Source: Candidatus Enterousia sp. (GTDB lineage: Bacteria > Pseudomonadota > Alphaproteobacteria > Rs-D84). From it: 64,000 bases of DNA. Positions 4,214 to 62,130 of this stretch are shown one piece after another (position 1 is the stretch's first letter; each line of letters opens with the position of its first letter). The notes below the pieces were generated by a model that did no database searches, was not told the DNA's origin, and saw nothing but the letters and a program-made list of their open reading frames with translations. Made by a program: the position numbers and the translations under genes. The stretch is taken from assembly GCA_045613315.1 (NCBI GenBank), contig JAZLAV010000018.1, positions 33,975 to 97,974 on the forward strand, written 5' to 3'.

Positions 4214-4243
4214 AAAAATGCCCGTTCGGGCATTTTTATTATT
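4214..4243 (+). terminator. rho-independent terminator after yidC
   Basis: aaaaatgcccgttcgggcatttttatt: GC stem, 3-nt loop, T-run. Confidence 0.7.
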
Positions 4244-4577
4244 GTACCAGGTATCGATACAGTGCATATGGCGTCTGGATTGTGCGTGCGGTGACACCAA
4301 TTGCGCGTTTCGATAAATCGACACATGAATATGCGTGTGTTTGGGTAAATTCATGCGGGGCGTCAATCGGAACATATACAAATTGCCATCCGTGCATGCG
4401 CAAAATACGAATGTCGCGTGTGGTAAAATATATCTTTTCAATTTTGCCAGGCCGTACAAATTGATACATGACAAGTTTTTTGCCAAATTGAAATATCGGT
4501 GCACAATGCCGAAATTTTCGACACAGTAAACGTGGCAATACCTTGGACGTGTTATGTGAAAATGCGATGATAATCAT
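4239..4577 (-). CDS. hypothetical protein (112 aa), downstream of virB10
   Basis: Intact ORF with a GGGGG RBS 6-8 nt upstream of the ATG. No recognisable domain. Confidence 0.4.
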   Translation of the reverse strand: MIIIAFSHNTSKVLPRLLCRKFRHCAPIFQFGKKLVMYQFVRPGKIEKIYFTTRDIRILRMHGWQFVYVPIDAPHEFTQTHAYSCVDLSKRAIGVTARTIQTPYALYRYLVQ

Positions 4578-4596
4578 AATTATTCCCCCGGGTTGT

Positions 4597-4941
4597 TTAT
4601 TTGTTTATCCAACCGCGGATGATGGCGGCGTGCTCGATTGTTTCCATGGCATCGTGCCACAATGCCGCGGCACGATTTTCCGCCCAGATATATTGGTGCG
4701 GGGCACGACGACGATCGCCATATTTTTTCATGACCCCCAATTGTTCGTCGGTTAATTTCCCGCACAGATACAATTTTGTCACCAATGATTCAACATCCAT
4801 CAATTCGCACACGCGACGGGTCGGATTGCCATGTTGGCGTGTAAAACCATTTTGAACCGATTTGGAATACAAGAACCAAAACCATAATTGTTCGGCGCTT
4901 TGGAATTTTTCTGGTGTATATGCGATTTGTGTTTTTGTCAT
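4597..4941 (-). CDS. hypothetical protein (114 aa)
   Basis: Intact ORF with a GGGAG RBS upstream. No domain recognised. Confidence 0.4.
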   Translation of the reverse strand: MTKTQIAYTPEKFQSAEQLWFWFLYSKSVQNGFTRQHGNPTRRVCELMDVESLVTKLYLCGKLTDEQLGVMKKYGDRRRAPHQYIWAENRAAALWHDAMETIEHAAIIRGWINK

Positions 4942-5178
4942 TTGTTTTTCTCCCTTGGTAAATTAAATTTAATGTATTTATAGACACGAATTAGAACGAT
5001 ATTAAATATTACAACCGCCGGTTGAAGTGCGAATCGGTTTTCCGATTCGTGTATAGAATTTGGTTTTGTGTAATCGAATCGGCCGTTGCGGTTTGTTTTT
5101 AATAAAAACCGCGCATTTAATGCGCGGTTTTATTGCATATGGTACATTATGAAGAGTTCATTGTGCCCCCCCGTGGAT

Positions 5179-5212
5179 AAAAAATAACCCGCATCGTGCG
5201 GGTTATTTTTAT
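5179..5212 (-). terminator. terminator hairpin downstream of virB10
   Basis: aaaaaataacccgcatcgtgcgggttattttt: an inverted repeat flanked by A/T runs. On the minus strand it follows the virB10 stop at 5232. A second hairpin sits at 5104-5134 (aaaaaccgcgcatttaatgcgcggtttt). Confidence 0.6.
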
Positions 5213-5231
5213 GGTTAACTTATCTTTACCA

Positions 5232-7580
5232 TCACAAAATCGGTGGAAAACAATCGCCACCCGTTTGTGGACAGCAATTGAATCCTTGGTCACCCATATC
5301 GGTATAAATTTCGCCGGTACAGCAACCGTTTGCATCCGGTGCCAATCCGTCTTCACAGGTTATAATGTTTTCCGTCGGTGCCGTTTCAACGGGCAACTTT
5401 TCTGATTGGTACGGATTCTTTATCGAACCATCGTCATTATATTTCAATCCCAAAACCTGTTCGTTATAGGTTTTTGTATCGGTGGCTTTACTGGCGATAC
5501 TGTTGTTGTTGCTTGTGGATTGTTGATTTTGATAAACTGCTTCCTGGCGAGCATTATTTATTGCCTGGTAATTACTGGCCTGGCAATATGCAACCAGTGT
5601 ACTGTACGAATACCCCAATTTATTTAACGCATCCGCGATGACGGCATTATAATCCATTGCACGCAACGCACCGGTTTTGGAATCTGTAATACAATATTGC
5701 GACAGGTTAAACGAACGTGCCTGGCCAACCCACGAACCGTCGTCATAATCGGCCTTGGCGTCCCAATGGGGAACCGAACGAACAACGGTTGCCCTGTTCG
5801 CTGCGCCGTTCATATAGCATTTTTTACTGCCGTCTGTACAAGCAACCATCAAATCATACGGTGAATAAACTGTAATGCGTGTACCGGCCGGAATTGTGAA
5901 CGGTGGAACGGTATTGTCCATCATATCAACCAATAACTTTTGTGCCACCTGGTTCCAGGCGGTAATAATTTCATTTTTCGCCAGTTCAGATGAACGCATT
6001 GTTCCGCTTTGCACAACCGTGTTGTTGTCCAAATCAATTTGATTAACAAATTTATCGGCAACGGGTGCAATCATATTTACCGCCGCCGGTACAATGGCGG
6101 TTAACATCGGCATAACAAATTGTTCCAAGTAATCGGTACTGCCGCGACCGGGCACACCAACACGTCCCTGGGCATCGGCCGATGTTGGTTCGGTACCATT
6201 TTGGAAATTAAATTCAACGCCGTTTGGTAAAACAAATTGATACCATTTTATATTCATACGACCAATTGCCTTGTACGGGCCCGGAACATTTCCGGTGACA
6301 TAGCCCAACATAAGTGTTCCCGTGGGAATAATGATTGTTCGACCGTTATCTGAATATACGTTTCTATCAACTGTGGCACGCACAGGGAAATGCAGATTAT
6401 CGGCTTCCAGTGCAGCATCCGCCCGAACGTCGGAAACAATCGTTGCGGGAATCGGTTTGTATTGGCGCAATATAAATGTTCGGTCGTATGGTTGGGTTGC
6501 AACAATGGCATTTTGGTCCGTGGTGCCATAGGACACATCTGTATCCGGTTGCTTCGTTACCAGTTTTTTCATGCCCCCAGTCGGCGCGTCGGCAACAACG
6601 GCATCGGTTGCGCGCACGGATGTTTTACGTGCCCATGGCGCGTCATTCAATGTTGGCATATTGCCAGACGATACAACATTTCCAATATGTTCGGCATCGG
6701 TACCGATGCGTTTGCCATCACCGTTAATGTCGGTGATAATACCGCTGTCCGGGTTGTAAACACCGGTGGCGTTTTTGCATTCTGTATCTGAAAAAGGATG
6801 AAAATAGTATGCACCGTGTTCCGGTTTTATCCAACCAATTTGATTGCCCGATGCATCATATCCCGGGAACGCAAAATCAGAACAAGATTCCGACGCACGT
6901 GCGACCGGTTTTGGTTCTTCAATCGGTGTCGAAATTTCCTTTTTCCCGGCGAACGGGTCGGCGGGCGCAATCGTTTTTATTTCCGATTCAATTTCGTTGA
7001 CCGCGGGTTTCACAACGGGTTCCGGTTCCACGATTGGTTTTGCAACCGGTTTCGGTGTTTCTTTGATTTCAGGTGCGGTGGCGCCCAAAATAACAGTTAT
7101 TTTTTCCGCTGTTTTCATCGTGTCGGGTTCCGATGCCGCGCGCCAATCAACATACATTGTCACCGTTTCCGGTTTCATTGCGATATTTGGTGCGTATTCC
7201 AAAATCACACGGCACGGAATCGCAGCGGTTATTTCGCCGGCATCCGTACAGGTCGTTTTTACATTAAATCCATCGATTTCCTTGTTCCGGCGAACGGTTG
7301 CACGGGCGGGCGCATTGGTTTTTACGGTAATTGTTTCGGTTTTTTTTGTACCAACCATAACATTTGCCCAATCAACAGTGTCATTGGACAACGTGACCTT
7401 GACCTGGACATCATTTACCTTTTGAGTGTTTTTTTTCGCCCTGCCGCCGCCAATTAACAATGTTAACAGTATAACAACAACCAAAAATGCCGCCCCCAAC
7501 AGCAACCATTGAACGTATTTTGGTGTTGTATTGCGCAAATCTGAAAATTGCTGGCCAAGTTTATTCATGTTAATTCGCAC
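5232..7580 (-). CDS. virB10: type IV secretion system protein VirB10/TrbI family, with about 200-aa Cys-rich C-terminal extension
   Basis: N-terminal TM (WLLLGAAFLVVVILLTLLIGG), a Pro-rich linker (KETPKPVAKPIVEPEPVVKPAVNE), and the VirB10 C-terminal barrel region (NGRTIIIPTGTLMLGYVTG...ADAQGRVGVPGRGSTDYLEQF...FTIPAGTRITVYSPYDL). Possible starts are GTG at 7580 or ATG at 7568. Confidence 0.75.
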   Translation of the reverse strand: MRINMNKLGQQFSDLRNTTPKYVQWLLLGAAFLVVVILLTLLIGGGRAKKNTQKVNDVQVKVTLSNDTVDWANVMVGTKKTETITVKTNAPARATVRRNKEIDGFNVKTTCTDAGEITAAIPCRVILEYAPNIAMKPETVTMYVDWRAASEPDTMKTAEKITVILGATAPEIKETPKPVAKPIVEPEPVVKPAVNEIESEIKTIAPADPFAGKKEISTPIEEPKPVARASESCSDFAFPGYDASGNQIGWIKPEHGAYYFHPFSDTECKNATGVYNPDSGIITDINGDGKRIGTDAEHIGNVVSSGNMPTLNDAPWARKTSVRATDAVVADAPTGGMKKLVTKQPDTDVSYGTTDQNAIVATQPYDRTFILRQYKPIPATIVSDVRADAALEADNLHFPVRATVDRNVYSDNGRTIIIPTGTLMLGYVTGNVPGPYKAIGRMNIKWYQFVLPNGVEFNFQNGTEPTSADAQGRVGVPGRGSTDYLEQFVMPMLTAIVPAAVNMIAPVADKFVNQIDLDNNTVVQSGTMRSSELAKNEIITAWNQVAQKLLVDMMDNTVPPFTIPAGTRITVYSPYDLMVACTDGSKKCYMNGAANRATVVRSVPHWDAKADYDDGSWVGQARSFNLSQYCITDSKTGALRAMDYNAVIADALNKLGYSYSTLVAYCQASNYQAINNARQEAVYQNQQSTSNNNSIASKATDTKTYNEQVLGLKYNDDGSIKNPYQSEKLPVETAPTENIITCEDGLAPDANGCCTGEIYTDMGDQGFNCCPQTGGDCFPPIL

Positions 7581-7589
7581 CCGAAATAA

Positions 7590-9131
7590 TTATTGTATTC
7601 TTACCACGTTGCAACTGGCACCACTGAACTTTAACAATTGGTCGCACAGTTTTTGTGCCGTTTCAATGTCTGCCATTGGCCCGATGCGTAAACGATACAG
7701 ACGCGCGGTCGTTGAACCCGCACCCAATTCACCGACACCCTGTTCGTCGACAGCAAAGAACACCTTGTCCTTGTACGGGGTAAGCAACCCAGAACCATTT
7801 TCACCACTGAATTTTGCCAACAGGCCAACCCAATAATCATCCAATGCTTTGACCGAGGTGTCGGATTTCAATTCAACCGCGACGCCGGTTTGATTGCTGG
7901 AAATAATGGGAATGTTCGATTGCGGTAAATATGAACCCGCCGTCACACGTTCGGTTGGCATCATCGTAACCGCCCCAGACGATGTAGTGCCTGTGATTGT
8001 TGGTTGTGGATATACCTGGCCTGCGACAAAACCAGACGGCATATAATAACCCGCTGGATTTGTGTTTTGGACATTTCCAACCATAACTGGTGTGCCGGTG
8101 TAGTTTACCCCGGCCGCGTTAATCGCGTTCACATCATATCCATATGCCATCGTATTTAACGATTGACCGGACATCATGGATTGTGCAACGTTGGCCTCGG
8201 CCAATGCCATAACGGAATTGGTATCCGCAATAAGGAACGGTTTTTCGCGCTTTTTAATGCACACTATGCGTTGACCACTGCGCAGAACCATATCGCCAAC
8301 GGCTTCTACTATCAATAAACGTCCATCTTCACCGTCGGTGCGGAATCCAACCGGGGATTCGCCGCCTTCGACCAATAATGATACGACGGGACGCTGGGTC
8401 ATGGCAATAACCTTGTCCCCAAAGTCAATATATGTAAATATGCGATCGCGCCATACGCGTTCGGGCGCAATTACATAGTCGTCCGGGTTCGGAACAAATA
8501 TATCCAAATCGAAACGAAATTCAGATGGATCAATCTTCATAGATTTAATCCAACCATAATCTTCGCCGTCAACACCAATGGTGCCACCCGATGTCTTGGT
8601 TGTCTTTTTGAATATAGACGACATTCCGCCCGCGGCCGTGGTGGTTGTGCCCGCTATATTTGGCAATGCCGCGTTACCATCCATAACCACTTCCACCTGG
8701 GAATAGGTAATTTCAGACGAATTTGTTGGTTCCGCGCGAAGATAGAAAATATACTGATTGCCCGATTTGCCAGACACAATCATATTTGTGTCGCCACCCT
8801 GGGTATTGGCATTTGGGGTAATGTACATCACGTTTGCGCCCGGGGTTGTGTCGATTTGGAACATACCATCGTTTCCGATAGTCGCCTCGTCAATCTGTTC
8901 GCCGGTGGGCAACGATATCATTGTCACCATGCCACTGCGTAATCTTATTGGTAAAACGGTTCCCTTGGACCAAGATAGTTGTGCGTATCCGGGTTTCGTA
9001 CTGCCCGCGGCCATGTTGGCATTCGGATTGTTCCACGCGGTTTGCACCGCCATAGCATTCAATGGTGCCGTGCACACAATCGCCAAACACAGTAATGATA
9101 CATTTATTTTTAAGGTATTCAAAAAAGTCAT
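7590..9131 (-). CDS. virB9: type IV secretion system protein VirB9/TrbG family, fused to C-terminal SPOR-like domain
   Basis: Signal peptide, then a VirB9 N-domain (PIRLRSGMVTMISLPTGEQI...TNMIVSGKSGNQYIFYLRA) and C-domain (RIFTYIDFGDKVIAMTQRPVVSLLVEGG...LRSGQRIVCIKK). The roughly 95-aa C-terminal tail ...LYRLRIGPMADIETAQKLCDQLLKFSGASCNVVRI resembles SPOR peptidoglycan-binding domains. Confidence 0.75.
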   Translation of the reverse strand: MTFLNTLKINVSLLCLAIVCTAPLNAMAVQTAWNNPNANMAAGSTKPGYAQLSWSKGTVLPIRLRSGMVTMISLPTGEQIDEATIGNDGMFQIDTTPGANVMYITPNANTQGGDTNMIVSGKSGNQYIFYLRAEPTNSSEITYSQVEVVMDGNAALPNIAGTTTTAAGGMSSIFKKTTKTSGGTIGVDGEDYGWIKSMKIDPSEFRFDLDIFVPNPDDYVIAPERVWRDRIFTYIDFGDKVIAMTQRPVVSLLVEGGESPVGFRTDGEDGRLLIVEAVGDMVLRSGQRIVCIKKREKPFLIADTNSVMALAEANVAQSMMSGQSLNTMAYGYDVNAINAAGVNYTGTPVMVGNVQNTNPAGYYMPSGFVAGQVYPQPTITGTTSSGAVTMMPTERVTAGSYLPQSNIPIISSNQTGVAVELKSDTSVKALDDYWVGLLAKFSGENGSGLLTPYKDKVFFAVDEQGVGELGAGSTTARLYRLRIGPMADIETAQKLCDQLLKFSGASCNVVRIQ

Positions 9132-9159
9132 GCCGTTCTTTCCTTTCTTGTGTTCAGGG

Positions 9160-9894
9160 CTATTCGTTTCCGATAACGAATGCGTTCAACGGGTCGTCAT
9201 CGCCCGTTTCAACAGAATATCCTGTGACCCGCAACCCCAATGGATTTTCCATGTGGTCTGTCCATTTGGTGCTTTGGGTATTATCGGGTTCCACCTTTAC
9301 TTTTATTCTATAATCTTTTCGGTCGGTCTGTCCATAACTATTTGTGCAGAACCATTTAAAATCAACCGTATATGTTGTTCCGTCGGCTGTGTATTTCGTG
9401 ATACCACCCTGGGAAAATTCCACAGAACACGAAAACCCAAAATTGCCGTCAACACCATTGGCCGTGTTCAACAGATATTCTTGATACATCGCGGTATTGG
9501 CAAACCCGGCATAGACGTCGGACGATGACATTGTTCTGATACGGTTCCAATTGTTCGTCATAATGCGAATGTTTGGGTCGATTTCGTTTCTAGTTTTTAT
9601 ATATTCGGCAATAAATGCGCGTTTGTATTCGTCCAAACCGTCAACATCGGGCATAACCTTGGTTAATGTAATTTCGGTATTTGTTGGGTTCGCAGACCGC
9701 AGAAAGAACACCTCGGGCCGGTCCAGTGGGAACATTTTGTACAATGTCACCGCCATTGCGGCCAAAACAACCAACGTTGTCGCAAAGACAAGCATTAAAA
9801 CCCGAGATAGCAAAATTGGCGGTTCTATGCGGTTTTGCACGGTTTCTCCCCCTTGTGTATGTTGATTGTAGACAAAATCGCGGTGGTGGTGCAA
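9160..9894 (-). CDS. virB8: type IV secretion system protein VirB8/TrbF family
   Basis: Bitopic: a cytoplasmic N-terminus, one TM (VLMLVFATTLVVLAAMAVTLY), and a periplasmic NTF2-like domain with the VirB8 NPxG motif (ENPLGLRVTGYSV). Confidence 0.75.
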   Translation of the reverse strand: MHHHRDFVYNQHTQGGETVQNRIEPPILLSRVLMLVFATTLVVLAAMAVTLYKMFPLDRPEVFFLRSANPTNTEITLTKVMPDVDGLDEYKRAFIAEYIKTRNEIDPNIRIMTNNWNRIRTMSSSDVYAGFANTAMYQEYLLNTANGVDGNFGFSCSVEFSQGGITKYTADGTTYTVDFKWFCTNSYGQTDRKDYRIKVKVEPDNTQSTKWTDHMENPLGLRVTGYSVETGDDDPLNAFVIGNE

Positions 9895-9945
9895 GTAAAA
9901 ATTACAATATTTTTAGATTTTACAAAAGATAATGTTAATTTTTGC

Positions 9946-9974
9946 TTGCACAAAAATATTTAAAACAATATAAT
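9946..9974 (+). promoter_or_regulatory. sigma70-like promoter for tRNA-Trp-secE-nusG
   Basis: TTGCAC, 17-nt spacer, TATAAT; about 90 nt upstream of tRNA-Trp. The same region is divergent to the virB8 operon. Confidence 0.5.
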
Positions 9975-10066
9975 ATTTCCACTTGATTTTTTATAATGAC
10001 GTGGTATCTTAGCGCAGACTATTGGGGTATTGCGGCATAAATCGGGCGATATTGTATGGTTATCAC

Positions 10067-10140
10067 AGGGGCATAGTTCAACGGTAGAATATCGGTCTCC
10101 AAAACCGCGGATGAGGGTTCGATTCCTTCTGCCCCTGCCA
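10067..10140 (+). tRNA. trnW: tRNA-Trp (anticodon CCA)
   Basis: Cloverleaf by eye: acceptor AGGGGCA/TGCCCCT, anticodon loop CTCCAAA, T-loop GTTCGATTC, encoded CCA end. It lies in the canonical position before secE-nusG. Confidence 0.85.
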
Positions 10141-26049: not shown

Positions 26050-26168
26050 TAACTGTTTTAACGAATTATGAAAACTTTCACAGTTTGTGTAAAATAAAAA
26101 TGTTTTTTTGCTTGTTTATGGGGTGTATGTATGATAAAATGATACGTAATAGAAGGGAAGGATTTACA

Positions 26169-28454
26169 ATGAAAAGACTTGTCGTTGTGTTAAGTGGTTT
26201 GCTGGTGTTGCCCGCATTTGCTGAGGTTGCGCCATTTTTCTATGATGATGCACTGGAATATTCCGATGCGGAATATGTTGACGATGGTGTGTTGGTGGAC
26301 GACGGTGTCGTCGTTGCCGACGAAGATGTCGCGCCGGTTGCACCCGTTATTAACACAAATCCACGTGTCGCGGCATCATCTCGTAATGGGTTGCGTTCGG
26401 CACCAACGGCAAATGTTGCGTCAAATCGCACAACGGGGGTAAATTCTCGCGTCACTGCGGCGCGCACAACAACGTCGCGTACGGCCGTGCCGTCACGTGT
26501 GACAACAACTCGTGGGACCGTTTCCCGGGTGGCAACAAATAATACAACGACTGGCGGTGTGTCGGCGCGTCGTGCAACGACAACCGGGGGTGCAAATACC
26601 GCGCGTGCCGGAACGACCACGACAACCGCCACAACAACAATGACAACGTCAACGGGTCAAACAACCGGAGTTTACGAGAATAATAACCTTTATACCGGTC
26701 GAGTGGGGGTTCGTTCGTCGGCGTCTGCGCGTGTGCCGGCGATTCGTGTTGCGTCCGCGACAATGACAACGTCGGCATCCGATGTGTCAGCCGCGGCCAA
26801 AGAAACGGCCAGCACGATGGATGCAATAAAAGAATTGTCCGATTATTGCAAGGCGCAATATACCGCATGTATGGATAATTTCTGCAATGTTTTGGATGAT
26901 AATCAGGGTCGTTGTTCGTGCAGCAAAAATGTCAAGAACTATGAAAAAACCGAAACTGCATTAAAGGCTGCGACCGAAGAATTACAGGAAGTTGCGCAAA
27001 AAATTCAATATATCGGTTTAAGCAAGGATGAAATCACAACCCTGTTTAGCGAGACCGAGGCCGAATCCGCAATGCGTGGCCAGTCGGACAGCAGCCAGAT
27101 TAAGGCAAGTTTGGATAAAATTAAAAATATGATTGTCGATGTCAAAACCGGCACGGCGTCGTCTGTGACGGCTGATTCCGGGATGTCGTTTGATTTATCG
27201 AACCTGTTGGACTTTACGATTTCCAGTAGTGGTTTTGACCTGTCTGCGTTGTTTGGGACCACAACATCAAACAACACATCGTCGATTGGCAATCAACGTG
27301 GAGAAACGCTGTATAAAACCGCGGCTGCCCGGTGCAAGGCAGCGGTGTTGACGGACTGTATATCAAATGGTGTTGATGCGGCCGTTATAACCAATTCGTA
27401 TGATATGGAAATCGATAAACAGTGTATCGCATATGAACGCAGTTTGTCGGATGCAAACGACGAAATGTCGGCGACCGTGCGTAACGCAAAAACCGTTTTG
27501 CAAAAGGCGCGTTTGATGGTTGCGCAACAAAAGAACAGTTATGACCTGCGCGGGTGCATAAGTGCATTGGATTCCTGTATGCAGGACGACTATGTATGCG
27601 GTGCGGATTACGAATACTGTCTGGACCCGTCGGGCAAGTATATTGTCGACGGGGCAATTGTTGTCGGTTCATTGCCGGGCAAGGTGTTGACGCAAGCGGC
27701 GAAAGAATCTGGTATTCTTAACGAAGGATTGTATCAAACGTGGACATATACTCTTTCGGGTAGCAATGCTATATCGCCGTGGGATGGAAGGGATGATCAA
27801 AGTGGTAATTTGGCATCATATATTACCGCAACTTTAACATCTGATACTGTGGAAAATGTAGATTCAAATATGTCCAAATTCCTGCAGTACAAGATTGGAT
27901 ATAATGCCGGTGGTAAAAATTACGGTATGTGTATGTCCGTCCTTAATAAGTGCCAGGATTATACATACAGTAGTGGTACGTACGTGAATAATAACAGAAT
28001 TATCGAAGAGTTTCTGTATCGTACATTGCCACGAATCAAGGCAGGCCAGGATGCGTTGTTGTCAAGTTATGCCGAAACATGCATATCGGATGTGACGTCG
28101 TGTTTAAGCTCTAATAATTACAGAACAGATGGTGGTGCGTCTGCGAATAATATTGCACTTAATGCGTGCAGAAATATCATCCAGACGTGTATGTCGGTCA
28201 ACGGCAATGTTTTGTCGGCCCCAACCCCCGGCGAAATAAGTACTTGGGCGAAATATGTGTATAGTGCTGAAGAAGGTTCGGACGCCAACAGTGTGCAGAT
28301 ACAAAATTATACTTACTGCATAACCAATATCGAGCAAGACGGAACAGGGGTTGCTACAGAATGGGACGAAACAGCAAAATCGTGTACATGTAACACGGGT
28401 TATAGTTGGACAGGTTCGGCCACGGCCTTGGGGTCGTGCGAGGCAGATTCCTGA
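26169..28454 (+). CDS. large secreted protein of unknown function (signal peptide; Thr/Arg/Val-rich low-complexity region; Cys-rich C-terminal region with EGF-like pattern)
   Basis: AGGA RBS 7 nt before the ATG at 26169. Signal peptide MKRLVVVLSGLLVLPAFA. Repetitive stretch ...TTSRTAVPSRVTTTRGTVSRVATNNTTTGG.... Many paired Cys. The C-terminal stretch CTCNTGYSWTGSATALGSCE fits a C-x-C-x2-G-Y-x-x-G...C EGF-like pattern. Confidence 0.6.
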   Translation: MKRLVVVLSGLLVLPAFAEVAPFFYDDALEYSDAEYVDDGVLVDDGVVVADEDVAPVAPVINTNPRVAASSRNGLRSAPTANVASNRTTGVNSRVTAARTTTSRTAVPSRVTTTRGTVSRVATNNTTTGGVSARRATTTGGANTARAGTTTTTATTTMTTSTGQTTGVYENNNLYTGRVGVRSSASARVPAIRVASATMTTSASDVSAAAKETASTMDAIKELSDYCKAQYTACMDNFCNVLDDNQGRCSCSKNVKNYEKTETALKAATEELQEVAQKIQYIGLSKDEITTLFSETEAESAMRGQSDSSQIKASLDKIKNMIVDVKTGTASSVTADSGMSFDLSNLLDFTISSSGFDLSALFGTTTSNNTSSIGNQRGETLYKTAAARCKAAVLTDCISNGVDAAVITNSYDMEIDKQCIAYERSLSDANDEMSATVRNAKTVLQKARLMVAQQKNSYDLRGCISALDSCMQDDYVCGADYEYCLDPSGKYIVDGAIVVGSLPGKVLTQAAKESGILNEGLYQTWTYTLSGSNAISPWDGRDDQSGNLASYITATLTSDTVENVDSNMSKFLQYKIGYNAGGKNYGMCMSVLNKCQDYTYSSGTYVNNNRIIEEFLYRTLPRIKAGQDALLSSYAETCISDVTSCLSSNNYRTDGGASANNIALNACRNIIQTCMSVNGNVLSAPTPGEISTWAKYVYSAEEGSDANSVQIQNYTYCITNIEQDGTGVATEWDETAKSCTCNTGYSWTGSATALGSCEADS

Positions 28455-33094: not shown

Positions 33095-33194
33095 GATTGT
33101 GTATTGTAATGCCGTGCGGCATAATCGCAAGTTATAAATGAAAACTCTTTCATACGATTTGTTTTTGTGGTATAATAGGGTAAAAGTTGTTCTA

Positions 33195-34721
33195 ATGCGT
33201 TCAGGTAAAATCGCTTTTTTAATGACATTTTTGTTGCCTTTTGCGGCATTTGCAGCAAACGAGGGCGTGCCATCGTATTACCAGGCGGAATCGGAAACGA
33301 CCGCAAATCGCGTCGCGTATGGTAAATATGCAAACAATGGATATACAAAATATGTCGGGCAATCTGGCCAAAAACAAGTTGTTGGTACGAACACATACAC
33401 GTACCAGGTTCCACGCCAAAAAATTGTGAACCCAACTAATTCCAGTGCGGTATTTACCGATGGAACATATGTTGGCGCAGCAAACGGAACATTTACGGCA
33501 AATGGAATCGCAATGCCGATTGAATCCGAAGCAAAAACCAGTATATATGCCGGGTATTCGCGTCGTTTTGCGGATTTTCAGTTCAAAACGGGTGTAAATT
33601 CTGTTTTGGAATGGGACGATATGATTTTTAACGAAATCAACGTCGGCGCACGTCATAATTTTTCGCTGCGTAATTTCGATTTATTTGCGTATGCTGATTA
33701 TACATTTGGTGATATGACATCGGGTGGTTTGTCGATGGATTATGATTTGGAACCGTATGATTGGGCGGATCCGGATTACGGTATTTTCACAATATCTATG
33801 GGGGACCAATCGGGGCGCACGAATCGTTTCAAGGTTGGTATTGGTGCACATCATATTTGGGATATTGCCGGGTGGAAATTGTCGCCATCGATTGGGTACG
33901 AAGTGTTTAAGCATAATCTTAAAATGTCGGATCACCTGTATCCGAATCCGGGGATTTATTTACCCATGATGTCGGACAAGGGCGACTATGTCTATGGCGA
34001 CGAAGAAGGGTATTATTACACGTTGCCCGTCGGGACAGAAGCCCCGTCTGATTGGTACCAGGTTTGTTTAAGTCCCGAAGACATCGCATTGGCATCGGCA
34101 CCGACGGCCGGATTTTCTCAGTTGGGGACGTCAATTTCAACGACGCCATATACCGAATCGATGGGATATGTACCGTGGGGTGTTGGACCAAATGAATGTA
34201 TTATTATTGGTGGTGATGGTCCGATACGTATTAACGGCACGACGCATATTTATAACACGACATGGTCTGGGTTCTATTTGGGGTTGGAAATTGAAAAGCA
34301 GATGACATTGTCGGACAAACTGCGTTTTTATTTCCAGGTTGGTTTGCCAAAATATTCATCCGAAGGTATTTGGCCAAATCGTGACGATTGGCAACAAAAC
34401 CCAAGTTTCCTGGATGAGGGGTCCAAAGGTGCGTACACATACACCGCGGAAATGGAATATGATTTGCGCCTGTCCAATCGGTTGCAACTGGTTATCAAGG
34501 CGGACACAAACTATTTCCACGTTGGTAAAATAGGTGGCGAATTATACGTTGCGTCATACAGTGCATTTTGGATTGATGAAAACGGTCAATATATTTTGGA
34601 CGATAACGGGTTGCCGATTATTGAAACGACGCCGGCGCATACCGAAAAAATATCGGAATCATTGAAAGAGGCCGTATGGCAATCGTTCGGTCTGCATATC
34701 GGGTTTAAATACGCATTTTAA
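33195..34721 (+). CDS. outer-membrane beta-barrel protein of unknown function
   Basis: Signal peptide FLMTFLLPFAAFA. The beta-strand-like alternating pattern ends ...GLHIGFKYAF (C-terminal aromatic residue). The start was moved to the internal ATG. Confidence 0.55.
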   Translation: MRSGKIAFLMTFLLPFAAFAANEGVPSYYQAESETTANRVAYGKYANNGYTKYVGQSGQKQVVGTNTYTYQVPRQKIVNPTNSSAVFTDGTYVGAANGTFTANGIAMPIESEAKTSIYAGYSRRFADFQFKTGVNSVLEWDDMIFNEINVGARHNFSLRNFDLFAYADYTFGDMTSGGLSMDYDLEPYDWADPDYGIFTISMGDQSGRTNRFKVGIGAHHIWDIAGWKLSPSIGYEVFKHNLKMSDHLYPNPGIYLPMMSDKGDYVYGDEEGYYYTLPVGTEAPSDWYQVCLSPEDIALASAPTAGFSQLGTSISTTPYTESMGYVPWGVGPNECIIIGGDGPIRINGTTHIYNTTWSGFYLGLEIEKQMTLSDKLRFYFQVGLPKYSSEGIWPNRDDWQQNPSFLDEGSKGAYTYTAEMEYDLRLSNRLQLVIKADTNYFHVGKIGGELYVASYSAFWIDENGQYILDDNGLPIIETTPAHTEKISESLKEAVWQSFGLHIGFKYAF

Positions 34722-35888: not shown

Positions 35889-36377
35889 ATGTCAAAACAA
35901 ATACAAATTCGGCGCGGTACCGCAGCCGAGCATAGCAGTTTTACCGGTGCAATCGGTGAACTTACAATGGATACAACCAACAAAACAATCCGGGTCCACG
36001 ATGGCACAACCGCGGGTGGCACAGTTTTGGCGAAACAAAGCGAAATACCCGATTTAACAAATGTTGATTATGTAATTGAAACACAATTACCCACGGCGGA
36101 AAATAATTACACATGGTACAGAAAATACAAAAGTGGCTGGGTCGAACAGGGGGGAATACTAAATGCGGGAGGCACATCTGCAGTAACGGTTTCATTACCA
36201 ATCACAATGAACAATTCAGAATATAATATTCACGCAACTTGTATAAATTCTGTCGAATATTGGTGTGGGTCATCCGCACACACAACAAACACATGTACAT
36301 TTCGTACAACAAACCGTAACGGCGAAGGTTATATGCAACGGGTTAGTTGGTGTGTTTCTGGTATAATAGCAAACTAA
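35889..36377 (+). CDS. phage tail-fibre-like protein (N-terminal IQIRRGTAAE...GEL...DGTTAGG motif)
   Basis: MSKQIQIRRGTAAEHSSFTGAIGELTMDTTNKTIRVHDGTTAGG matches the conserved N-terminus shared by phage tail fibres and the major tropism determinant (IQLRRGTAAEW...GELG.ETDTGK.KIGDG). RBS AAAGGA. Confidence 0.55.
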   Translation: MSKQIQIRRGTAAEHSSFTGAIGELTMDTTNKTIRVHDGTTAGGTVLAKQSEIPDLTNVDYVIETQLPTAENNYTWYRKYKSGWVEQGGILNAGGTSAVTVSLPITMNNSEYNIHATCINSVEYWCGSSAHTTNTCTFRTTNRNGEGYMQRVSWCVSGIIAN

Positions 36378-37552
36378 AATTTTAAACACGTACTTATAAT
36401 ATCAGACAAATTATGCTTATAATTTTGATAAGTATAATTTTGTCTGGTTTCGTCTTTGACCTTTTTTGATAAATTTCTTAAATCAGATTCCGACATTTCC
36501 AGCATTTTATTTATGCGTTTTTCTATTTCGGTTATGGATATCTTGTTAAACTCAAATCCGTATTTACTGATGTTTAATCCCGTACTTTGTGAACAAATTG
36601 GTATTAAACCGCCGTTTGCCATACACATTAAAGTCGCAACCGCGCCACCTTCGGATACAGACGGTGTAATTACGGCGACATTATTATCCATAATACGTTT
36701 AAAATCATCGGACTCAACATCAACAAATTCGTAATATGTTATATTTTTGTGTTTGCCGGTAAACACATCTTTATAATAATCATACAATATTTGTTCGCCC
36801 CTGCTAAAACCACATATTGTTAAATTCAATTCGGGGTGTTTTTTAAATAATTCGATTACTAAATCCAATCCTTTGTGCAAACCACCGGACGAACCAAAAA
36901 ACAGGAAGTTTGTTTTTATGTTTGTAAAATCTTTACTGTCAATATTAATATCATATGTGTCATAATAAAATGCATTTAAATTAAAAATACGATTTTTTAC
37001 GTTATGTGTGTTTTTAACAAAATCATTACCCAATACGATAATATTTTTAGCAAAATTATTTATTACTGAATTATCTTGGTCACAATAACGCGCAGAATCA
37101 GGACACCATTTGCCGGTCGCGTTGTAAAAATCTATAACTTTCTGTATGGTTACAATATTTGAAAAATCGATTGAGCAACCCGGACTGTAAAAAATAGTAT
37201 TTATTTTTGGGTTTGAACACGCTATACGAAAATTATGCCCAAAACCATAAATAACATCATAATTTTCTATTTCATCATGTGATAATAATGTGTCCCAATT
37301 TGCAACATCAACGGTATAACCCATTTCATTAAATATTTGCGCAGCAGTAAAACATTCCATAAAATTTGTATGTGCCCTTGAAAGTCCTTTTGTGAATGGT
37401 GTGGTTATATATGATACAAGAACCCGTTTTTTTCGGTGTTTTGCATTAAATACGTTATATAAAATATTTCGTCCGGCTTCGTGGTGTCGTATTGCCACGC
37501 GCCAACCATGGAAAGGAATTATTTTTAATAATAATTTTTTGTATAATTTCAT
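36374..37552 (-). CDS. glycosyltransferase family 1 (GT-B, GT4-like)
   Basis: 392 aa. The C-terminal ...NVAVITPSVSEGGAVATLMCMANGGLIPICS is an EX7E-type GT1 motif region. Very AT-rich. Confidence 0.6.
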   Translation of the reverse strand: MKLYKKLLLKIIPFHGWRVAIRHHEAGRNILYNVFNAKHRKKRVLVSYITTPFTKGLSRAHTNFMECFTAAQIFNEMGYTVDVANWDTLLSHDEIENYDVIYGFGHNFRIACSNPKINTIFYSPGCSIDFSNIVTIQKVIDFYNATGKWCPDSARYCDQDNSVINNFAKNIIVLGNDFVKNTHNVKNRIFNLNAFYYDTYDINIDSKDFTNIKTNFLFFGSSGGLHKGLDLVIELFKKHPELNLTICGFSRGEQILYDYYKDVFTGKHKNITYYEFVDVESDDFKRIMDNNVAVITPSVSEGGAVATLMCMANGGLIPICSQSTGLNISKYGFEFNKISITEIEKRINKMLEMSESDLRNLSKKVKDETRQNYTYQNYKHNLSDIISTCLKF

Positions 37553-38343
37553 TGTTTTTTACCTTGCTTGTTAAACAATATATGAAATCCGAAAATTGTG
37601 ATTACCTTTTTGTCAAAAAACATAAAATTGTTTATTGAAAATATTTTTTGTATCAAAGACAATTGGCTGTTAAAAGCATGATGAATTTGTTGTTTCGTAA
37701 ACATTTGACTTACAATGTATGATTTTTCTTTTTGCCAGCGATTTTCCCCGGATGCACCATTTACATCAAAATAACACGCCCTGAACGGTATATGTTTATA
37801 CGAACATTTGTGTATATGAATAAATTCAACCCATTTTTTCCAATCGCTTACTATTTTTAAATTTTCATCATACATACCGTATTTTTCAAATAAATCACGC
37901 TTTATCAGCGTTCCTTGATGTGGTAAAGTATCCAGAATCAAAAAATTTGTATCTATTGTATCCGGAACAGTACACTCTTTATCGTATTCTTTTATGTATC
38001 TGTGACCATAAATAATATCTGCATCCAATCCGGCAGATACAAATTTTTTTAACACGTTTTTATCATACAATGAATCACCGGCATTCATAAACAAAAGGTA
38101 ATCGCCACTGGCGCGTTTGATACCTTTGTTCATCGCGTTATAAATGCCGTTATCTTTTTCAGATACAAAATAGTCCATATGCGATTTATATTTTTCAAAT
38201 ATGTCCAATGTTTCTTGGTTTGAACCGCCATCGATAACAATCCATTCAAAATCTTGAAATGTTTGATTTATAATGCTTCGGCATGTTTGTTCTGTGTTTG
38301 GGGCATTATAACATATTGTTATGATGCTTATTTTTTTACTCAT
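37549..38343 (-). CDS. glycosyltransferase family 2 (GT-A)
   Basis: ISIITICYNAPNTEQTCRSIINQTFQDFEWIVIDGGS...FMNAGD (DxD). Overlaps the downstream GT by 4 nt. Confidence 0.7.
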   Translation of the reverse strand: MSKKISIITICYNAPNTEQTCRSIINQTFQDFEWIVIDGGSNQETLDIFEKYKSHMDYFVSEKDNGIYNAMNKGIKRASGDYLLFMNAGDSLYDKNVLKKFVSAGLDADIIYGHRYIKEYDKECTVPDTIDTNFLILDTLPHQGTLIKRDLFEKYGMYDENLKIVSDWKKWVEFIHIHKCSYKHIPFRACYFDVNGASGENRWQKEKSYIVSQMFTKQQIHHAFNSQLSLIQKIFSINNFMFFDKKVITIFGFHILFNKQGKKQ

Positions 38344-39211
38344 AATTTACGGCCCTTTTTAATTTGAAATATTTTATTGGGTGATGAAAAAGCATGTGTT
38401 TTGATAAAAACATCGGATTAAAAAATCGGGATTTGCGCACCACTTGCAGTAATTTTTTTCGCAAAACAGGATTGTCCGACAGAAAATTCAACATATATAA
38501 TTTGATTTTGGCTGTGCTTTCTTGTTGGATTTGTTTTTGCCGGATACTTACATTTTCGCCGTGCCAACGATATTTCAATAATATATCTGGTAAATTATGT
38601 ATTTGTGTAATTTGTATCATGCGGGCCCACAAATCATAATCTTCGGCATTGGTGTATTCCGCACGATACCGTAAATCGTGTTTGATAAATATTTCCCTGC
38701 GTATCATAGCACTTGGGTTTGCAATATTACACATATTCAACATATCGATATATGAAATATTTTGTTTCATATGTACATCTGTGTCAGAACATCCAAATTG
38801 ATGATACGATGTTCCCAAAACCCCACATTCGGGATGGGTGTTCATATAGGCGACCTGGGTGGCAAAACGTTTTGGTAATGAAACATCGTCACTGTCCATA
38901 AGCGCGATATATTCGCCAGAACATAAAGAAAGTCCCTGGTTAAGAACCACAATACGTCCATTGTTCGTGGGGTTGTTTATAAATTTGATTCTTTTATCTT
39001 GTTTTGCATATTGGGCAATAATGTTGGCGGTGTTGTCTGTGGAACCGTCATTTATGATGAAAAATTCAAAATCAGTAAATGTTTGTGATAAAATACTTTC
39101 AATCGCCTCGGCAATATATTTTTCAGAGTTATATGCGGTCATTAACACCGATACTCGCGGGGTGTGCGATGGCGTGGCCGTGGTGCGACCCGCGTTTTCT
39201 AATGATTTCAT
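38336..39211 (-). CDS. glycosyltransferase family 2 (GT-A)
   Basis: VSVLMTAYNSEKYIAEAIESILSQTFTDFEFFIINDGSTD...LMDSDD. Confidence 0.7.
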   Translation of the reverse strand: MKSLENAGRTTATPSHTPRVSVLMTAYNSEKYIAEAIESILSQTFTDFEFFIINDGSTDNTANIIAQYAKQDKRIKFINNPTNNGRIVVLNQGLSLCSGEYIALMDSDDVSLPKRFATQVAYMNTHPECGVLGTSYHQFGCSDTDVHMKQNISYIDMLNMCNIANPSAMIRREIFIKHDLRYRAEYTNAEDYDLWARMIQITQIHNLPDILLKYRWHGENVSIRQKQIQQESTAKIKLYMLNFLSDNPVLRKKLLQVVRKSRFFNPMFLSKHMLFHHPIKYFKLKRAVNYE

Positions 39212-45649: not shown

Positions 45650-46290
45650 AATTATTTGACGGCGACAATCACAAACGCGGGTAATCCCCATCCAAAATTT
45701 TGTATTTCCCGCCCGCGGCGGAGTGTCACGAAGTGACGGGGTGGGTATTCGGTGTCGTTTGTTCCGATGAACGGTTGGAACCCTCCCCGCCCTGCGAGCC
45801 ATCCCCTCCGATGGAGGGGAATTATTCTCTGGGCCCAGTTTCCAGAAAAACGCAATGCGTTTCCCAGGCCCCCGTTTCATTTTGTCATTGCGAGCAAAGG
45901 GTACCCACAAAATGCAACGCATTTTGCGGGGGCCGCCGGCGAAGCAATCCAGTCAATAGTGTATGGGCGTTCCGCTCACGGCTTTATTACACCCTGGATT
46001 GCCGCGGTCGCTACGCTCCCTCGCAATGACAAAGCCGCCACCCACCCACCAAACAAAATTATTCCCTTTTGGGTTTTCTGTGTTATAATGAGTATTGAAT
46101 CCAATGGGAATTGGGTTCGGGCTGTGGTAAGCCTACAAAAATCCGGTGCAAAAGCATCGTAATCTGATGTTTTTCGGTGCCTTTTGCACCGTTATACATC
46201 CCCGATTGTTTGGTCGGGGAACAGACTTGATTTTTGGTCTTTACCACTCCCCGACCGCTTTTCCTTTGGCGGTCTTTTTCTTTATAACCA
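45650..46290. repeat. GC-rich, palindrome-dense non-coding island
   Basis: About 640 bp that is markedly GC-richer than its flanks, with no coherent ORF. There are at least 10 short perfect or near-perfect hairpins: gtcacgaagtgac, cccctccgatggagggg, aaaacgcaatgcgtttt, cgccggcg, ggtgcaaaag..cttttgcacc, ccccgattgtttggtcgggg, gaccgcttttcctttggcggtc. Also a distant inverted pair tgtcattgcgag (about 45888) and ctcgcaatgaca (about 46021). Confidence 0.55.
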
Positions 46291-46301
46291 ATGGAACAAA
46301 C

Positions 46302-47348
46302 ATGGCAAATGTACATTTTGATAACGCAAAACGTAATAAAAACGATGAGTTTTATACTTGTTATGAGGATATCGAAAAAGAATTAAATCACTATGCCAAG
46401 TATTTCAAGAACAAGGTGATTTATTGCAATTGCGATGACCACGCGGGAATTGGGCTGGGAACACCAAAATCAAACTTCCTTAAATACTTTGCCGATAATT
46501 TTGAGGCATTTGGCATTAAAAAAGTAATCGCCACCCATTATGAACGCGATGGCGCATCCACAATGTATGTGTTGGACCACGATAACACCGGCGATGGTAT
46601 TATTTGCAGCGAGGATATAGAAGAAATACCATTAAAGAGTAATGGCGATTTTCGTTCGCCCGAGTGTATTGAATTGTTAAAAACCGCGGACATCGTAATT
46701 ACAAACCCGCCATTTTCGTTGTTTGGTGAGTATGTTGCGCAACTAATGGAATATAAAAAGAAATTCATAATTATTGGTAATGATAATTGCCGAACCTATA
46801 AAGATATATTCCAATTGATAAAAGGTAACAGATTCTGGAGTGGATATAATCATGTAAAAAAATTTGTAAAACCAGATGGGGAAATACAGCAGTTCGGTAA
46901 TGTTTCTTGGTACACAAATATACCAACAATACGACGTAATGAAAAGATAGAAACCGGTAAAAAATATTACGGATACGAAAGCATGTATTCCCAATACGAA
47001 AATTACGATGCAATAAATGTCAATAAGACGGACGATATCCCAATGGACTATGACGGCGTAATGGGCGTACCTATTACTTTTATTGATAGGTACAATCCAG
47101 AACAATTTGAAATTGTTGCCTTGGGTATAGTTGGTAGTTGTAATTTTACTAGTAATAAAAAAATGGAAATTTTGGACAAACAAGGCAACAGGACGGGTAA
47201 ATTTACATTTAATGCAAAGGGAACGTTGTACAGGAAATACAACCCAAACAATCCGAAAGATAACCCCGCCTTTGTAGATGTTGAAACAGGACAATTGTAT
47301 TCCAGCATTTATGCGCGAATTTTAATCAAAAAGAAAAAGGGGAACTAA
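46302..47348 (+). CDS. N6-adenine DNA methyltransferase, EcoRI-methylase-like family
   Basis: MANVHFDNAKRNKNDEFYTCYEDIEKELNHYAKYFKNKVIYCNCDD... and motif IV NPPF (ITNPPFSLF). The ORF-track ATG at 46146 lies inside the GC-rich island; the start was reset to the ATG at 46302. Confidence 0.7.
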   Translation: MANVHFDNAKRNKNDEFYTCYEDIEKELNHYAKYFKNKVIYCNCDDHAGIGLGTPKSNFLKYFADNFEAFGIKKVIATHYERDGASTMYVLDHDNTGDGIICSEDIEEIPLKSNGDFRSPECIELLKTADIVITNPPFSLFGEYVAQLMEYKKKFIIIGNDNCRTYKDIFQLIKGNRFWSGYNHVKKFVKPDGEIQQFGNVSWYTNIPTIRRNEKIETGKKYYGYESMYSQYENYDAINVNKTDDIPMDYDGVMGVPITFIDRYNPEQFEIVALGIVGSCNFTSNKKMEILDKQGNRTGKFTFNAKGTLYRKYNPNNPKDNPAFVDVETGQLYSSIYARILIKKKKGN

Positions 47349-47349
47349 T

Positions 47350-48549
47350 ATGGTGATGAAGGCAAAGTTGTTTGATACATTAACCGTTCGGCAATTGGTC
47401 GATGGTTACCGCGATTCCGGCGACAACGGTGTTGTTGCGTTTGGTGGAAAACTTAATGTGCGACCCGCATTCCAACGCGAATTTATTTATACGCCACGTG
47501 ATAGAGACATGGTTATGAAATCGGTTTATGATAATTTACCGTTAAATGTTATGTATTGGGCACGCAACCCCGATGGCACATTTGAAATTATTGATGGACA
47601 ACAGCGCACAATTTCCATATGCCAATTTATCACGAACGATGATGGTTATGGCAATCCAATCGCAATTAACTTTGATGGTCGCCGAACGCAAACATTTAAT
47701 CAAATGTCACCGGAAAAACAGCGCGAAATATTGGACGAATATAAATTAATGGTCTATGTTTGCGATGGCACCGAAGACGAAAAATTGGAATGGTTCCATA
47801 CCATAAACATTGCCGGCAAAGTGATGGAGGAACAAGAATTACTAAATGCCGACTATACGGGAACATGGCTGACATCGGCCAAGGCGTTCTTTTCCAAAAA
47901 AGACAACAATCCCGCATTGAATTATCGGTATTATGACAACGACCGAAAACACAGTTTAATTGCACTTAACGCCGATGATGCCAATCGCCAGGCGTTACTG
48001 CATTTGGTGTTGGGGTGGATTGTGGACGGCAACCCCAAATTATATCCGGAAATAAAAAACTATATGTCGATTCACCGCGCAGACGAAAATGCAGATGAAT
48101 TGATAAATTACTATAAATCGGTTGTTGATTGGGTGCACGATGTGTTCGGTGAAAAATACTATAACGAAATGCGCGGGTTGCCGTGGGGATTAATCTTTAA
48201 TAAATATCGATATGGTAAATATGACCAATCGGTTATGGCACGCGCGGTCTCGGGACTGATGGCAGACGAAGAAATACAAAACAAACGTGGCATTTTCGAG
48301 TTTCTGTTTGATATGAACCAAAAACACCTGAACCTGCGGCAATTTGATAACGCAACCAAACGCACAATTTATCAAAAGCAGGCCGGCATTTGTCCGTACT
48401 GTGCCAACACGGAAAACGCAAACAAAGTGTGGAAATTCGAGGAAATGGAGGGCGACCATATTATGCCGTGGTCCCAGGGTGGCAAAACCATTCCAGAAAA
48501 TTGCCAAATGTTATGCAAACATCATAACAGGGCAAAAAGCGACAATTAA
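47350..48549 (+). CDS. DUF262 (ParB-like, DGQQR) domain fused to C-terminal HNH endonuclease
   Basis: EIIDGQQRTISICQF is the DUF262/GmrS-type motif. The C-terminal CPYCANTEN...EGDHIMPWSQGGKTIPENCQMLCKHHNRAKSDN is a classic HNH. The ATG is 2 nt after the MTase stop, so the two are translationally coupled. Confidence 0.7.
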   Translation: MVMKAKLFDTLTVRQLVDGYRDSGDNGVVAFGGKLNVRPAFQREFIYTPRDRDMVMKSVYDNLPLNVMYWARNPDGTFEIIDGQQRTISICQFITNDDGYGNPIAINFDGRRTQTFNQMSPEKQREILDEYKLMVYVCDGTEDEKLEWFHTINIAGKVMEEQELLNADYTGTWLTSAKAFFSKKDNNPALNYRYYDNDRKHSLIALNADDANRQALLHLVLGWIVDGNPKLYPEIKNYMSIHRADENADELINYYKSVVDWVHDVFGEKYYNEMRGLPWGLIFNKYRYGKYDQSVMARAVSGLMADEEIQNKRGIFEFLFDMNQKHLNLRQFDNATKRTIYQKQAGICPYCANTENANKVWKFEEMEGDHIMPWSQGGKTIPENCQMLCKHHNRAKSDN

Positions 48550-59875: not shown

Positions 59876-60080
59876 AATATAAATCCTTTACCGCGTTTGC
59901 GGAGTTGCCCAAGTTCATTATCTAATATTGATTTTGCGTTCGTAGTCTCTTGGCTTAGATAATAAGCTCGGAGGTTTATATTATTTTATTTGTTGGATGA
60001 TGAAATCTTTACACGAACGGGCTAGCCTTCCAACAGGCATACGCACAATATAACATAAAACAGATAAAAAATCAATATGT

Positions 60081-61700: not shown

Positions 61701-62130
61701 GTTTTATCCTTTTGTTTATTCCAAAGAAGAAATTACCAGACATTTTCATACCTGCGATTTTGGTTGCAACTGCTGACAATGAGGAATATTTGTCGCCATT
61801 ATATGAAAAACTGCCATCGTCATTGACTAACACTAGGTGTTTTATCCCCTTGAAATATCTTGTTAAAATTATACCTGGGACAAAGTTATATTTATTTGGG
61901 CACGCATGGTCTAAACATTGTTCTGGATTATCCTTGTATTTTCGAATTTTTACCAAATATTTATGTTCAATTCGAAGATTTAACCTGTCACATTGAATAT
62001 AATACCAAAGCGATCGCATTTGCCGTTTGAACGGATATTGTGAATATTTTGCCCACAATCGCGCCCGTTCATCAAATGACAGGGCTTTTAACTCCTCCAT
62101 CGTCTTGGGCATGTTATCTTTATATGACAT
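61690..62130 (-). CDS. small protein paired with serine recombinase (DUF2924-like)
   Basis: 146 aa. ...EELKALSFDERARLWAKYSQYPFKRQMRSLWYYIQ... pattern. It overlaps the recombinase start by 11 nt, the usual arrangement for DUF2924 partner proteins. Confidence 0.4.
   Translation of the reverse strand: MSYKDNMPKTMEELKALSFDERARLWAKYSQYPFKRQMRSLWYYIQCDRLNLRIEHKYLVKIRKYKDNPEQCLDHACPNKYNFVPGIILTRYFKGIKHLVLVNDDGSFSYNGDKYSSLSAVATKIAGMKMSGNFFFGINKRIKHDN

Follow-up and report, generated by a model that had tools for sequence, protein, structure and literature searches.

In type IV secretion systems (T4SSs), VirB10 forms the core that spans the envelope and senses energy, and its chain normally ends with the barrel. 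What, then, is the role of a long cysteine-rich tail that continues beyond the barrel, and on which side of the outer membrane does it lie? The question is raised by a VirB10 homologue encoded in a 64,000-nucleotide stretch of Candidatus Enterousia sp. DNA (contig JAZLAV010000018.1, positions 33,975 to 97,974; hereafter the window, to which coordinates refer unless a locus is named). A preliminary description of this DNA regarded the tail as surface-exposed and disulfide-rich, possibly an adhesin or a receptor-binding tip. The tail is a real C-terminal addition, specific to its lineage, to the VirB10 core-complex protein in gut Alphaproteobacteria of the Rs-D84 / Candidatus Enterousia type, and the module at its end is a portable unit found at the C-terminus of unrelated envelope proteins as well. 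By analogy with a characterised system, the most likely position of the tail is periplasmic, in or below the chamber of the outer-membrane core complex or around its ring. Its use there as a disulfide-stabilised docking appendage of the core complex is proposed tentatively, at a little under an even chance. The gene and the parts of the tail are as follows.

5232..7580, minus strand: VirB10/TrbI-family gene of 782 amino acids, with a GTG start, its stop codon at 5232-5234 and an alternative ATG at 7568.

5235..5843, minus strand: C-terminal extension, residues 580-782, 203 amino acids with 10 Cys, delimited by the AlphaFold2 (AF2) model, alignments and profile limits.

5817..5840, minus strand: first Cys pair, C581...C588, a short loop right after the last barrel strand, invariant in the alignments.

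5511..5783, minus strand: VirB10-specific alpha/beta subdomain, residues ~600-690, with a predicted local distance difference test score (pLDDT) of 68-87, an invariant W617-G-Q-x-R-S-F motif, C630, C666 and a helix at 659-687.

5433..5468, minus strand: YNEQVLGLKYND motif, residues 705-716, in the N/Q-rich flexible linker, with invariant Y705, N706, L710, G711 and Y714.

5235..5357, minus strand: terminal six-Cys module, residues 742-782, C-x10-CC-x14-CC-x6-C-FPPIL, with an identity of 0.85-0.92.

The canonical VirB10 domain had been described as ending near YSPYDLMV, which is borne out by the limits of the Pfam match (residue 572) and the NCBIfam matches (577 and 579) and by the last predicted strand (577-579). 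The extension of about 200 residues, placed at 5235-5840, was also essentially right, since it measures 203 residues at 5235..5843. The 14 Cys attributed to it, however, are those of the whole protein; the tail itself holds 10 (residues 581, 588, 630, 666, 742, 753, 754, 769, 770 and 777). Two CC pairs are among them, in line with the Cys-rich character and the paired CC motifs reported before, and the Cys enrichment goes far beyond chance. With the Cys frequency of 0.91% in 31 other window genes as background, 10 or more Cys would occur among 203 residues with a probability of ~2e-5, and six or more among the last 36 residues with one of ~9e-7.

A full-length AF2 model was built from 91 sequences (mean pLDDT 65.6), and from it the tail would comprise three parts. 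The first would be the short C581-C588 disulfide loop together with the alpha/beta subdomain, clamped by C630-C666. The second would be a flexible, N/Q-rich linker of ~50 residues, modelled with low confidence, bearing the YNEQVLGLKYN motif, which is kept even in the most divergent VirB10 homologues. The third would be a six-Cys mini-domain of ~42 residues, probably a beta-hairpin held by three disulfides; in the model the hairpin is formed by residues 757-761 and 767-771, with the CC pairs on its flanks.

The preliminary description had considered a sequencing frameshift, or an extension missing from close relatives or divergent among them. What was found is a single open reading frame (ORF), uninterrupted in the window with the tail included, and conservation of the tail throughout the relatives. 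From 5.8 billion proteins, a word-indexed search drew 896 matches to VirB10; the 120 listed cover 98-99% of the query with 54-100% identity, one fragment excepted, and come from many independent assemblies. The tail is also encoded at 221 loci of species-representative genomes, as detected by tblastn. All 14 Cys of the protein are invariant among 30 aligned homologues; when 91 are aligned (56-79% identity), this still holds for 13 Cys, and C742 is present in at least 90%. The mean column identity in the latter alignment is 53%; by region, the identity to the window protein is about 0.3 at residues 581-600, 0.6-0.75 at residues 661-720 and 0.85-0.92 in the last 42 residues, a stretch that ranks with the most strongly conserved of the protein. 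From one host to another (rumen, human, chicken, horse and mouse) the module hardly varies.

With regard to the state of the tail Cys, they are very probably disulfide-bonded, as the preliminary description had supposed, judging from their conservation and from the joint loss of C630 and C666. These two residues are absent together in the divergent VirB10 proteins P0140, P0143 and P0205, which keep C581, C588 and the six-Cys module, and additional Cys come as a pair in the homologues P0128 and P0129. Because the Cys come and go in pairs, disulfides in an oxidising, extracytoplasmic compartment are favoured over a metal cluster. Furthermore, every extracytoplasmic domain of VirB10 has an even number of Cys.

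Pfam, NCBIfam and the PDB contain no relative of the whole tail or of the module, whether in sequence or in fold. Every Foldseek match of the tail model has an E value of 2.7 or worse; searches of the PDB chains with phmmer and hmmsearch matched only residues 365-514, with no solved chain for 580-782; and the module profile gave 0 matches in the PDB at an E value of 10 or better. Like granulin, knottin and defensin mini-domains, the module is short, has six Cys with CC pairs among them and is predicted to form a beta-hairpin between these pairs, but no homology to these types was detected. A granulin-like fold, suggested by the CC...CCP spacing, was rejected: the hhalign probability against granulin A is 6%, the Pfam granulin model (PF00396) matches one of 32 members at an E value of 0.75, and the module has only six Cys as against the 12-Cys ladder. 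The module is apparently an undescribed small domain family. In the literature, no description was found of a Cys-rich VirB10 tail, of the six-Cys module or of a T4SS in Rs-D84 or Enterousia. Lineage-specific extensions are known for other core subunits, among them VirB7 and VirB8 in Xanthomonas.

A search for the Cys pattern in other proteins, which the preliminary description had proposed, found it in several envelope-protein architectures. An exhaustive HMMER search with the tail alone against 1.84 billion cluster representatives gave 211 matches. Those spanning most of the tail are VirB10 proteins of ~750-850 amino acids or their fragments; many further matches cover the last ~45 residues only, always at the protein C-terminus. 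The pattern C-x(7-12)-CC-x(10-16)-CC-x(4-9)-C fits 135 of the 150 best representatives, across several architectures. Among these 150, the spacing is mostly 10/14/6, the last Cys lies 4-10 residues from the end and the CFPP[ILM]x ending is conserved.

Besides VirB10, four kinds of carrier were found. The first is a bitopic family of ~700 amino acids (the P0154 family) with 775 homologues and no Pfam domain, in which a large N-terminal region without a signal peptide is followed by a coiled coil, one transmembrane helix, an acidic Pro-rich linker, a KPAYNVSQNEKMF motif and the module; in one genome the gene adjoins gcrA (L084, 10001..12067). The second comprises small proteins with a Sec signal and 1-3 copies of the module, which in three genomes are the last genes of an operon beside ftsQ-ftsA.

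L085 3055..8663, L086 3650..8555 and L087 859..7309: operon with secreted module proteins, adjoining ftsQ-ftsA.

In these operons, genes for a 108-residue protein, a lipoprotein of ~450 residues, a LolCE equivalog, a protein of ~230-250 residues, an ABC ATPase and a transmembrane protein of ~190-300 residues follow one another, and one or two secreted six-Cys-module proteins stand at the end. The permease is a LolCE equivalog by NCBIfam (409 bits, cutoff 362), and a MacB-type exporter dedicated to the module proteins, to which a Pfam resemblance had pointed, was dropped as a candidate. The third kind consists of mini-proteins of 84-102 amino acids, in which a transmembrane helix or signal sequence is joined to the module, and the fourth is a single prepilin-like protein, P0435 (TIGR02532, 18.7 bits, cutoff 16.3). 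One metagenome-assembled genome (MAG; JAIDWS01) encodes both a VirB10 (L010) and a two-module protein, P0147 (L086). No further module-bearing gene was found in the window, nor within ~10 kb of virB10 at 83 loci.

Where the tail lies depends on the domain that precedes it, whose parts are given below.

5844..6503, minus strand: VirB10 beta-barrel domain, residues 360-579, as delimited by Pfam, NCBIfam, AF2 and Foldseek.

5910..6137, minus strand: antenna helix-loop-helix, residues 482-557, within the barrel domain, with AF2 helices at 482-517 and 531-557.

Profile, architecture, fold and neighbouring genes all place the window protein in the TrbI/VirB10 family. The PF03743 TrbI/VirB10 profile of Pfam matches residues 372-572 with 66.5 bits (cutoff 35; E value 3.6e-18), and the NCBIfam models for VirB10 and ComB10 span residues 399-577 and 374-579, respectively. 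The NCBIfam equivalog of canonical VirB/D4 VirB10, NF038091, gives 59.6 bits and falls short of its cutoff of 220, and the ComB10 model gives 51.1 bits against a cutoff of 300. Because these scores are far under the cutoffs, the protein is an equivalog of neither canonical VirB10 nor ComB10. The AF2 model displays the VirB10 architecture, namely an N-terminal transmembrane helix, a Pro-rich periplasmic region and a C-terminal beta-barrel with an internal two-helix antenna. In Foldseek the barrel matches CagY (6x6k), which is the best match, X. citri VirB10 (6gyb), TrwE (7o3j), TraF (3jqo) and ComB10 (2bhv), at E values of 2e-8 to 1e-5.

The preliminary description had derived surface exposure from the premise that the VirB10 C-terminus forms the antenna, and this premise proved wrong. 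In the AF2 model the antenna is internal (482-557) and is followed by three barrel strands (561-579), the last of them at 577-579, and only then by the tail. The order of antenna, three strands and tail is the same as in TraB of F-like systems, in which the stretch that comes after the antenna lines the barrel and goes on to protrude into the central periplasmic chamber (PMC10939261). A periplasmic tail is the most economical placement because the chain has already come back to the barrel from the antenna where the tail starts, and because the module is also found on inner-membrane-anchored and Sec-exported proteins. More generally, additions to the VirB10 C-terminus should not be presumed to be surface-exposed.

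F-type TraB's C-terminal domain (CTD; pED208 and F, residues 372-455) is the nearest functional analogue of the tail. Like the tail, it is a stretch of the VirB10 chain that comes after the antenna projection, and it affects pilus production (PMC10939261). It is ~80 residues long and is not described as Cys-rich, whereas the tail here has 203 residues, five probable disulfides and a portable terminal module; no sequence or structural homology between the two was detected, so that the likeness is one of position only. The C-terminal extensions of VirB7 and VirB8 in the Xanthomonas X-T4SS are likewise lineage-specific additions to core subunits that decorate the periplasmic part (PMC6536674). 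These belong to other subunits, have other folds and compositions and are not Cys-rich, that of VirB8 having a high Ala, Gln, Gly and Pro content, and VirB10 has no such extension there. CagY, the VirB10 homologue of H. pylori, is also a greatly enlarged member of the family with extra domains, but its additions are N-terminal repeats and the chain ends with the VirB10 domain, with no C-terminal Cys module.

Under the docking reading, the periplasmic disulfide machinery would oxidise the tail Cys, and the six-Cys module, on its flexible tether, would bind a conserved partner in the envelope that the other carriers share. This contact would stabilise, anchor or connect the VirB8-9-10 complex, in which VirB9 has a fused SPOR domain and for which the operon encodes no VirB7.

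Several points weigh against this proposal. The evidence for a periplasmic placement is analogy together with the architecture of the other carriers, and the model of the tail is of moderate confidence only (mean pLDDT 63.7). By our own estimate, fourteen tails of 22 kDa would nearly fill a canonical core-complex chamber. No conserved envelope partner of the module was identified, and the prepilin-like carrier P0435 could show the module on a fibre outside the cell. Finally, the antenna loop is the only VirB10 segment known to be exposed on the surface in other characterised systems, and here it is ~96% conserved, which is comparable to the module, so that conservation cannot separate the readings.

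A broader role can be imagined for the six-Cys module, as a new portable envelope docking tag that would wire VirB8-9-10, the bitopic inner-membrane proteins, the pilin-like proteins and the adaptors with 2-3 modules into one apparatus, through a shared partner or through module-module contacts. Rs-D84 cells would use it to attach to, or exchange material with, other cells, and part of it could be surface-displayed. This wider scheme is considered unlikely.

Similarly unlikely is a surface adhesin or receptor-binding tip, in which the tail or its tethered module would reach the surface and bind a partner or a host cell. Such a role would suit the genomes of Rs-D84, which at <1 Mb and without most biosynthesis suggest a dependence on other cells (PMC12306168), and there is the precedent of beta1 integrin, which is reported to be bound by the VirB10-homologous part of CagY (PMC2779590). 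The presence of the module on a prepilin-like protein and the flexible linker of ~50 residues ahead of it could be taken in the same sense. Nothing found in the analysis favours the adhesin, though, and its premise fails, with the antenna internal and the chain back at the barrel before the tail begins. The C-terminus of F-type TraB enters the periplasmic chamber, and fourteen tails threaded through a pore of ~35-45 Å would presumably block the channel. For carriers with an inner-membrane anchor, the surface is out of reach. It might be added that host-specific binding should vary while the module is nearly invariant, but this is a weak point, the antenna loop being equally conserved.

The position of the module, always 4-10 residues ahead of the stop codon, its conserved CFPP[ILM]x ending and its presence in at least four unrelated architectures are what would be expected of a C-terminal sorting or processing tag comparable to the CTD of the type IX secretion system (T9SS), PEP-CTERM or GlyGly-CTERM, read by a dedicated machine that directs the localisation or attachment of envelope proteins. 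Dockerins, the T9SS CTD and PEP-CTERM are, like the module, conserved at the extreme C-terminus of unrelated exported proteins in one lineage, and the place of the small carriers at the end of a lolCE-lolD operon in three genomes might also point to such a machine. The same operon argues the other way, as the adjoining ABC permease is an ordinary LolCE equivalog and no dedicated exporter. In addition, tandem internal copies of the module (2-3 per protein) precede more sequence, and a terminal place is thus not obligatory. Known sorting tags are short and hydrophobic or charged, unlike a folded domain with six Cys in disulfides, and VirB10 needs no export past Sec and membrane insertion. When the extension and the module were compared with the curated C-terminal sorting or anchoring domains of Pfam and NCBIfam, no family matched. 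Dockerins, the T9SS CTD and PEP-CTERM have no sequence relation to the module, which differs from them in its tandem internal copies and for which no cohesin-like or sortase-like partner was identified. A sorting tag is rather improbable on balance.

Six invariant Cys within 36 residues, including two CC pairs, could in principle bind a metal (Zn, Cu or Fe-S) and form no disulfides, making the tail a metal-dependent structural or sensing element; in anaerobic gut bacteria without respiratory chains, periplasmic oxidation may be limited. The other Cys of the protein appear and vanish in pairs, though, and their number is even in each extracytoplasmic domain. Apart from E757 there is no typical conserved pattern of His, Asp or Glu ligands, and the weak fold neighbours, all non-significant, are disulfide mini-proteins (defensin, psalmotoxin and granulin). 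A metal site is therefore given a low probability. Lastly, a pseudo-extension produced by a frameshift, by read-through or by fusion with a separate downstream gene has next to no probability and was rejected, with nothing found in its favour, on the evidence of the continuous ORF, the full-length homologues in hundreds of independent assemblies, the tblastn loci, the strong purifying constraint on the tail and a terminator hairpin directly after the stop codon.

This hairpin closes an operon in which virB10 is preceded by two further core genes.

9160..9894, minus strand: VirB8 homologue, the first of the three-gene operon (Pfam VirB8, E value 9.2e-17, 62 bits, cutoff 23.2).

7590..9131, minus strand: VirB9/CagX homologue of 513 amino acids with a C-terminal SPOR domain (Pfam CagX, E value 5.1e-22).

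5180..5210, minus strand: intrinsic-terminator-like hairpin with a 14-bp stem, a 3-nt loop and a U-run (minimum free energy -21.7 kcal/mol, z -4.08, with none of 200 shuffles reaching this stability).

Because the hairpin directly follows its stop codon, virB10 is the last gene of the operon. The virB8 and virB9 genes lie directly upstream of it on the same strand, in an order that is retained in 64-78 of the 83 related loci, with VirB8 kept at 64. The SPOR domain of VirB9 occupies residues 475-511 (22.4 bits in Pfam, cutoff 21), and the fusion of this peptidoglycan-binding domain to VirB9 is unusual for a T4SS core subunit. The conserved gene order runs from secE-nusG / tRNA-Trp through virB8 - virB9 - virB10 and two genes of ~114 amino acids to yidC - lspA - kefB. 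Between secE-nusG/tRNA-Trp and the pair of ~114 amino acids, virB8-9-10 stands as a lone trio (window 4239..10140, loci L001-L083). No gene for VirB4, VirB6, VirB11 or VirD4, nor for VirB2, VirB3 or VirB5, was found among the 20 large ORFs of the window or within ~10 kb of virB10 in the 83 related genomes, where VirB7 is missing as well; the check was confined to these local regions. With regard to a VirB7-like lipoprotein in the window, there is no small ORF between tRNA-Trp, virB8, virB9, virB10 and the terminator. The pair that follows the terminator consists of two adjacent genes of ~112-114 amino acids (4239..4941, minus strand) with no Pfam or NCBIfam match, and genes of the same size hold their position in the relatives L001-L003.

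Ahead of the barrel, VirB10 contains the following features.

7452..7520, minus strand: N-terminal transmembrane helix, residues 21-43, an AF2 helix with a pLDDT of 83-87.

7071..7403, minus strand: extra PapD/ASH-like Ig sandwich, residues 60-170, with a pLDDT of ~88 and the invariant C111 and C123.

6681..6884, minus strand: small conserved beta domain, residues 233-300, with a pLDDT of 73-84, a conservation of 0.73-0.78 and the invariant C233 and C268.

The two extra folded domains (60-170 and 233-300; window 6681..7403) are periplasmic and contain one invariant Cys pair each. The Foldseek matches of the Ig sandwich are the PapD-like domains of HYDIN and CEP192, and residues 173-230 form a Pro-rich linker that is modelled with low confidence. 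In the antenna, the loop between the helices has a low pLDDT; the identity of the antenna across the 91-sequence alignment is 0.92-0.96. The NCBI version of the protein (P0001) has 778 amino acids and starts from the in-frame ATG at 7568.

The related loci come from Candidatus Enterousia sp., from 'uncultured Rickettsiales bacterium UMGS...' and from rumen or faecal MAGs named 'Alphaproteobacteria bacterium', with one chromosome assembly of 958,618 bp among them. The NCBI taxonomy lists Candidatus Enterousia as a genus of Alphaproteobacteria incertae sedis, and it belongs to the GTDB order Rs-D84. Genomes of this order measure ~0.75-1.0 Mb and lack most biosynthetic and respiratory pathways, and the organisms are thought to depend on other cells (PMC12306168). 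A whole order of uncultured gut Alphaproteobacteria, with ~900 genes, keeps the enlarged VirB10 at a fixed site of the core genome next to secE-nusG. The retention of the trio in so small a genome suggests that it is important to this lifestyle, and identifying the partner of the module would link a set of function-unassigned proteins in organisms that are not yet culturable.

Some further observations concern the rest of the window. A protein of 789 amino acids (26085..28454, plus strand) has a signal-peptide-like N-terminus, a Thr/Ala-rich region and 25 Cys, with no Pfam match and without the six-Cys module. A protein of 527 amino acids (33138..34721, plus strand) matches the Protochlamydia outer membrane protein family (Pom, E value 2e-12), and its gene adjoins one for an SLT_2 lytic transglycosylase. 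At 46146..48549 (plus strand), a gene for an EcoRI-type adenine methyltransferase is directly followed by one for a GmrSD-N/HNH endonuclease, and the two are probably a restriction or defence pair. Two stretches, at 36000..39211 and 60000..64000, have a low GC content (0.31-0.36, as against ~0.45 elsewhere); the former contains three glycosyltransferase genes, and the latter is possibly a mobile element, since it includes a gene for a serine recombinase (60081..61700).

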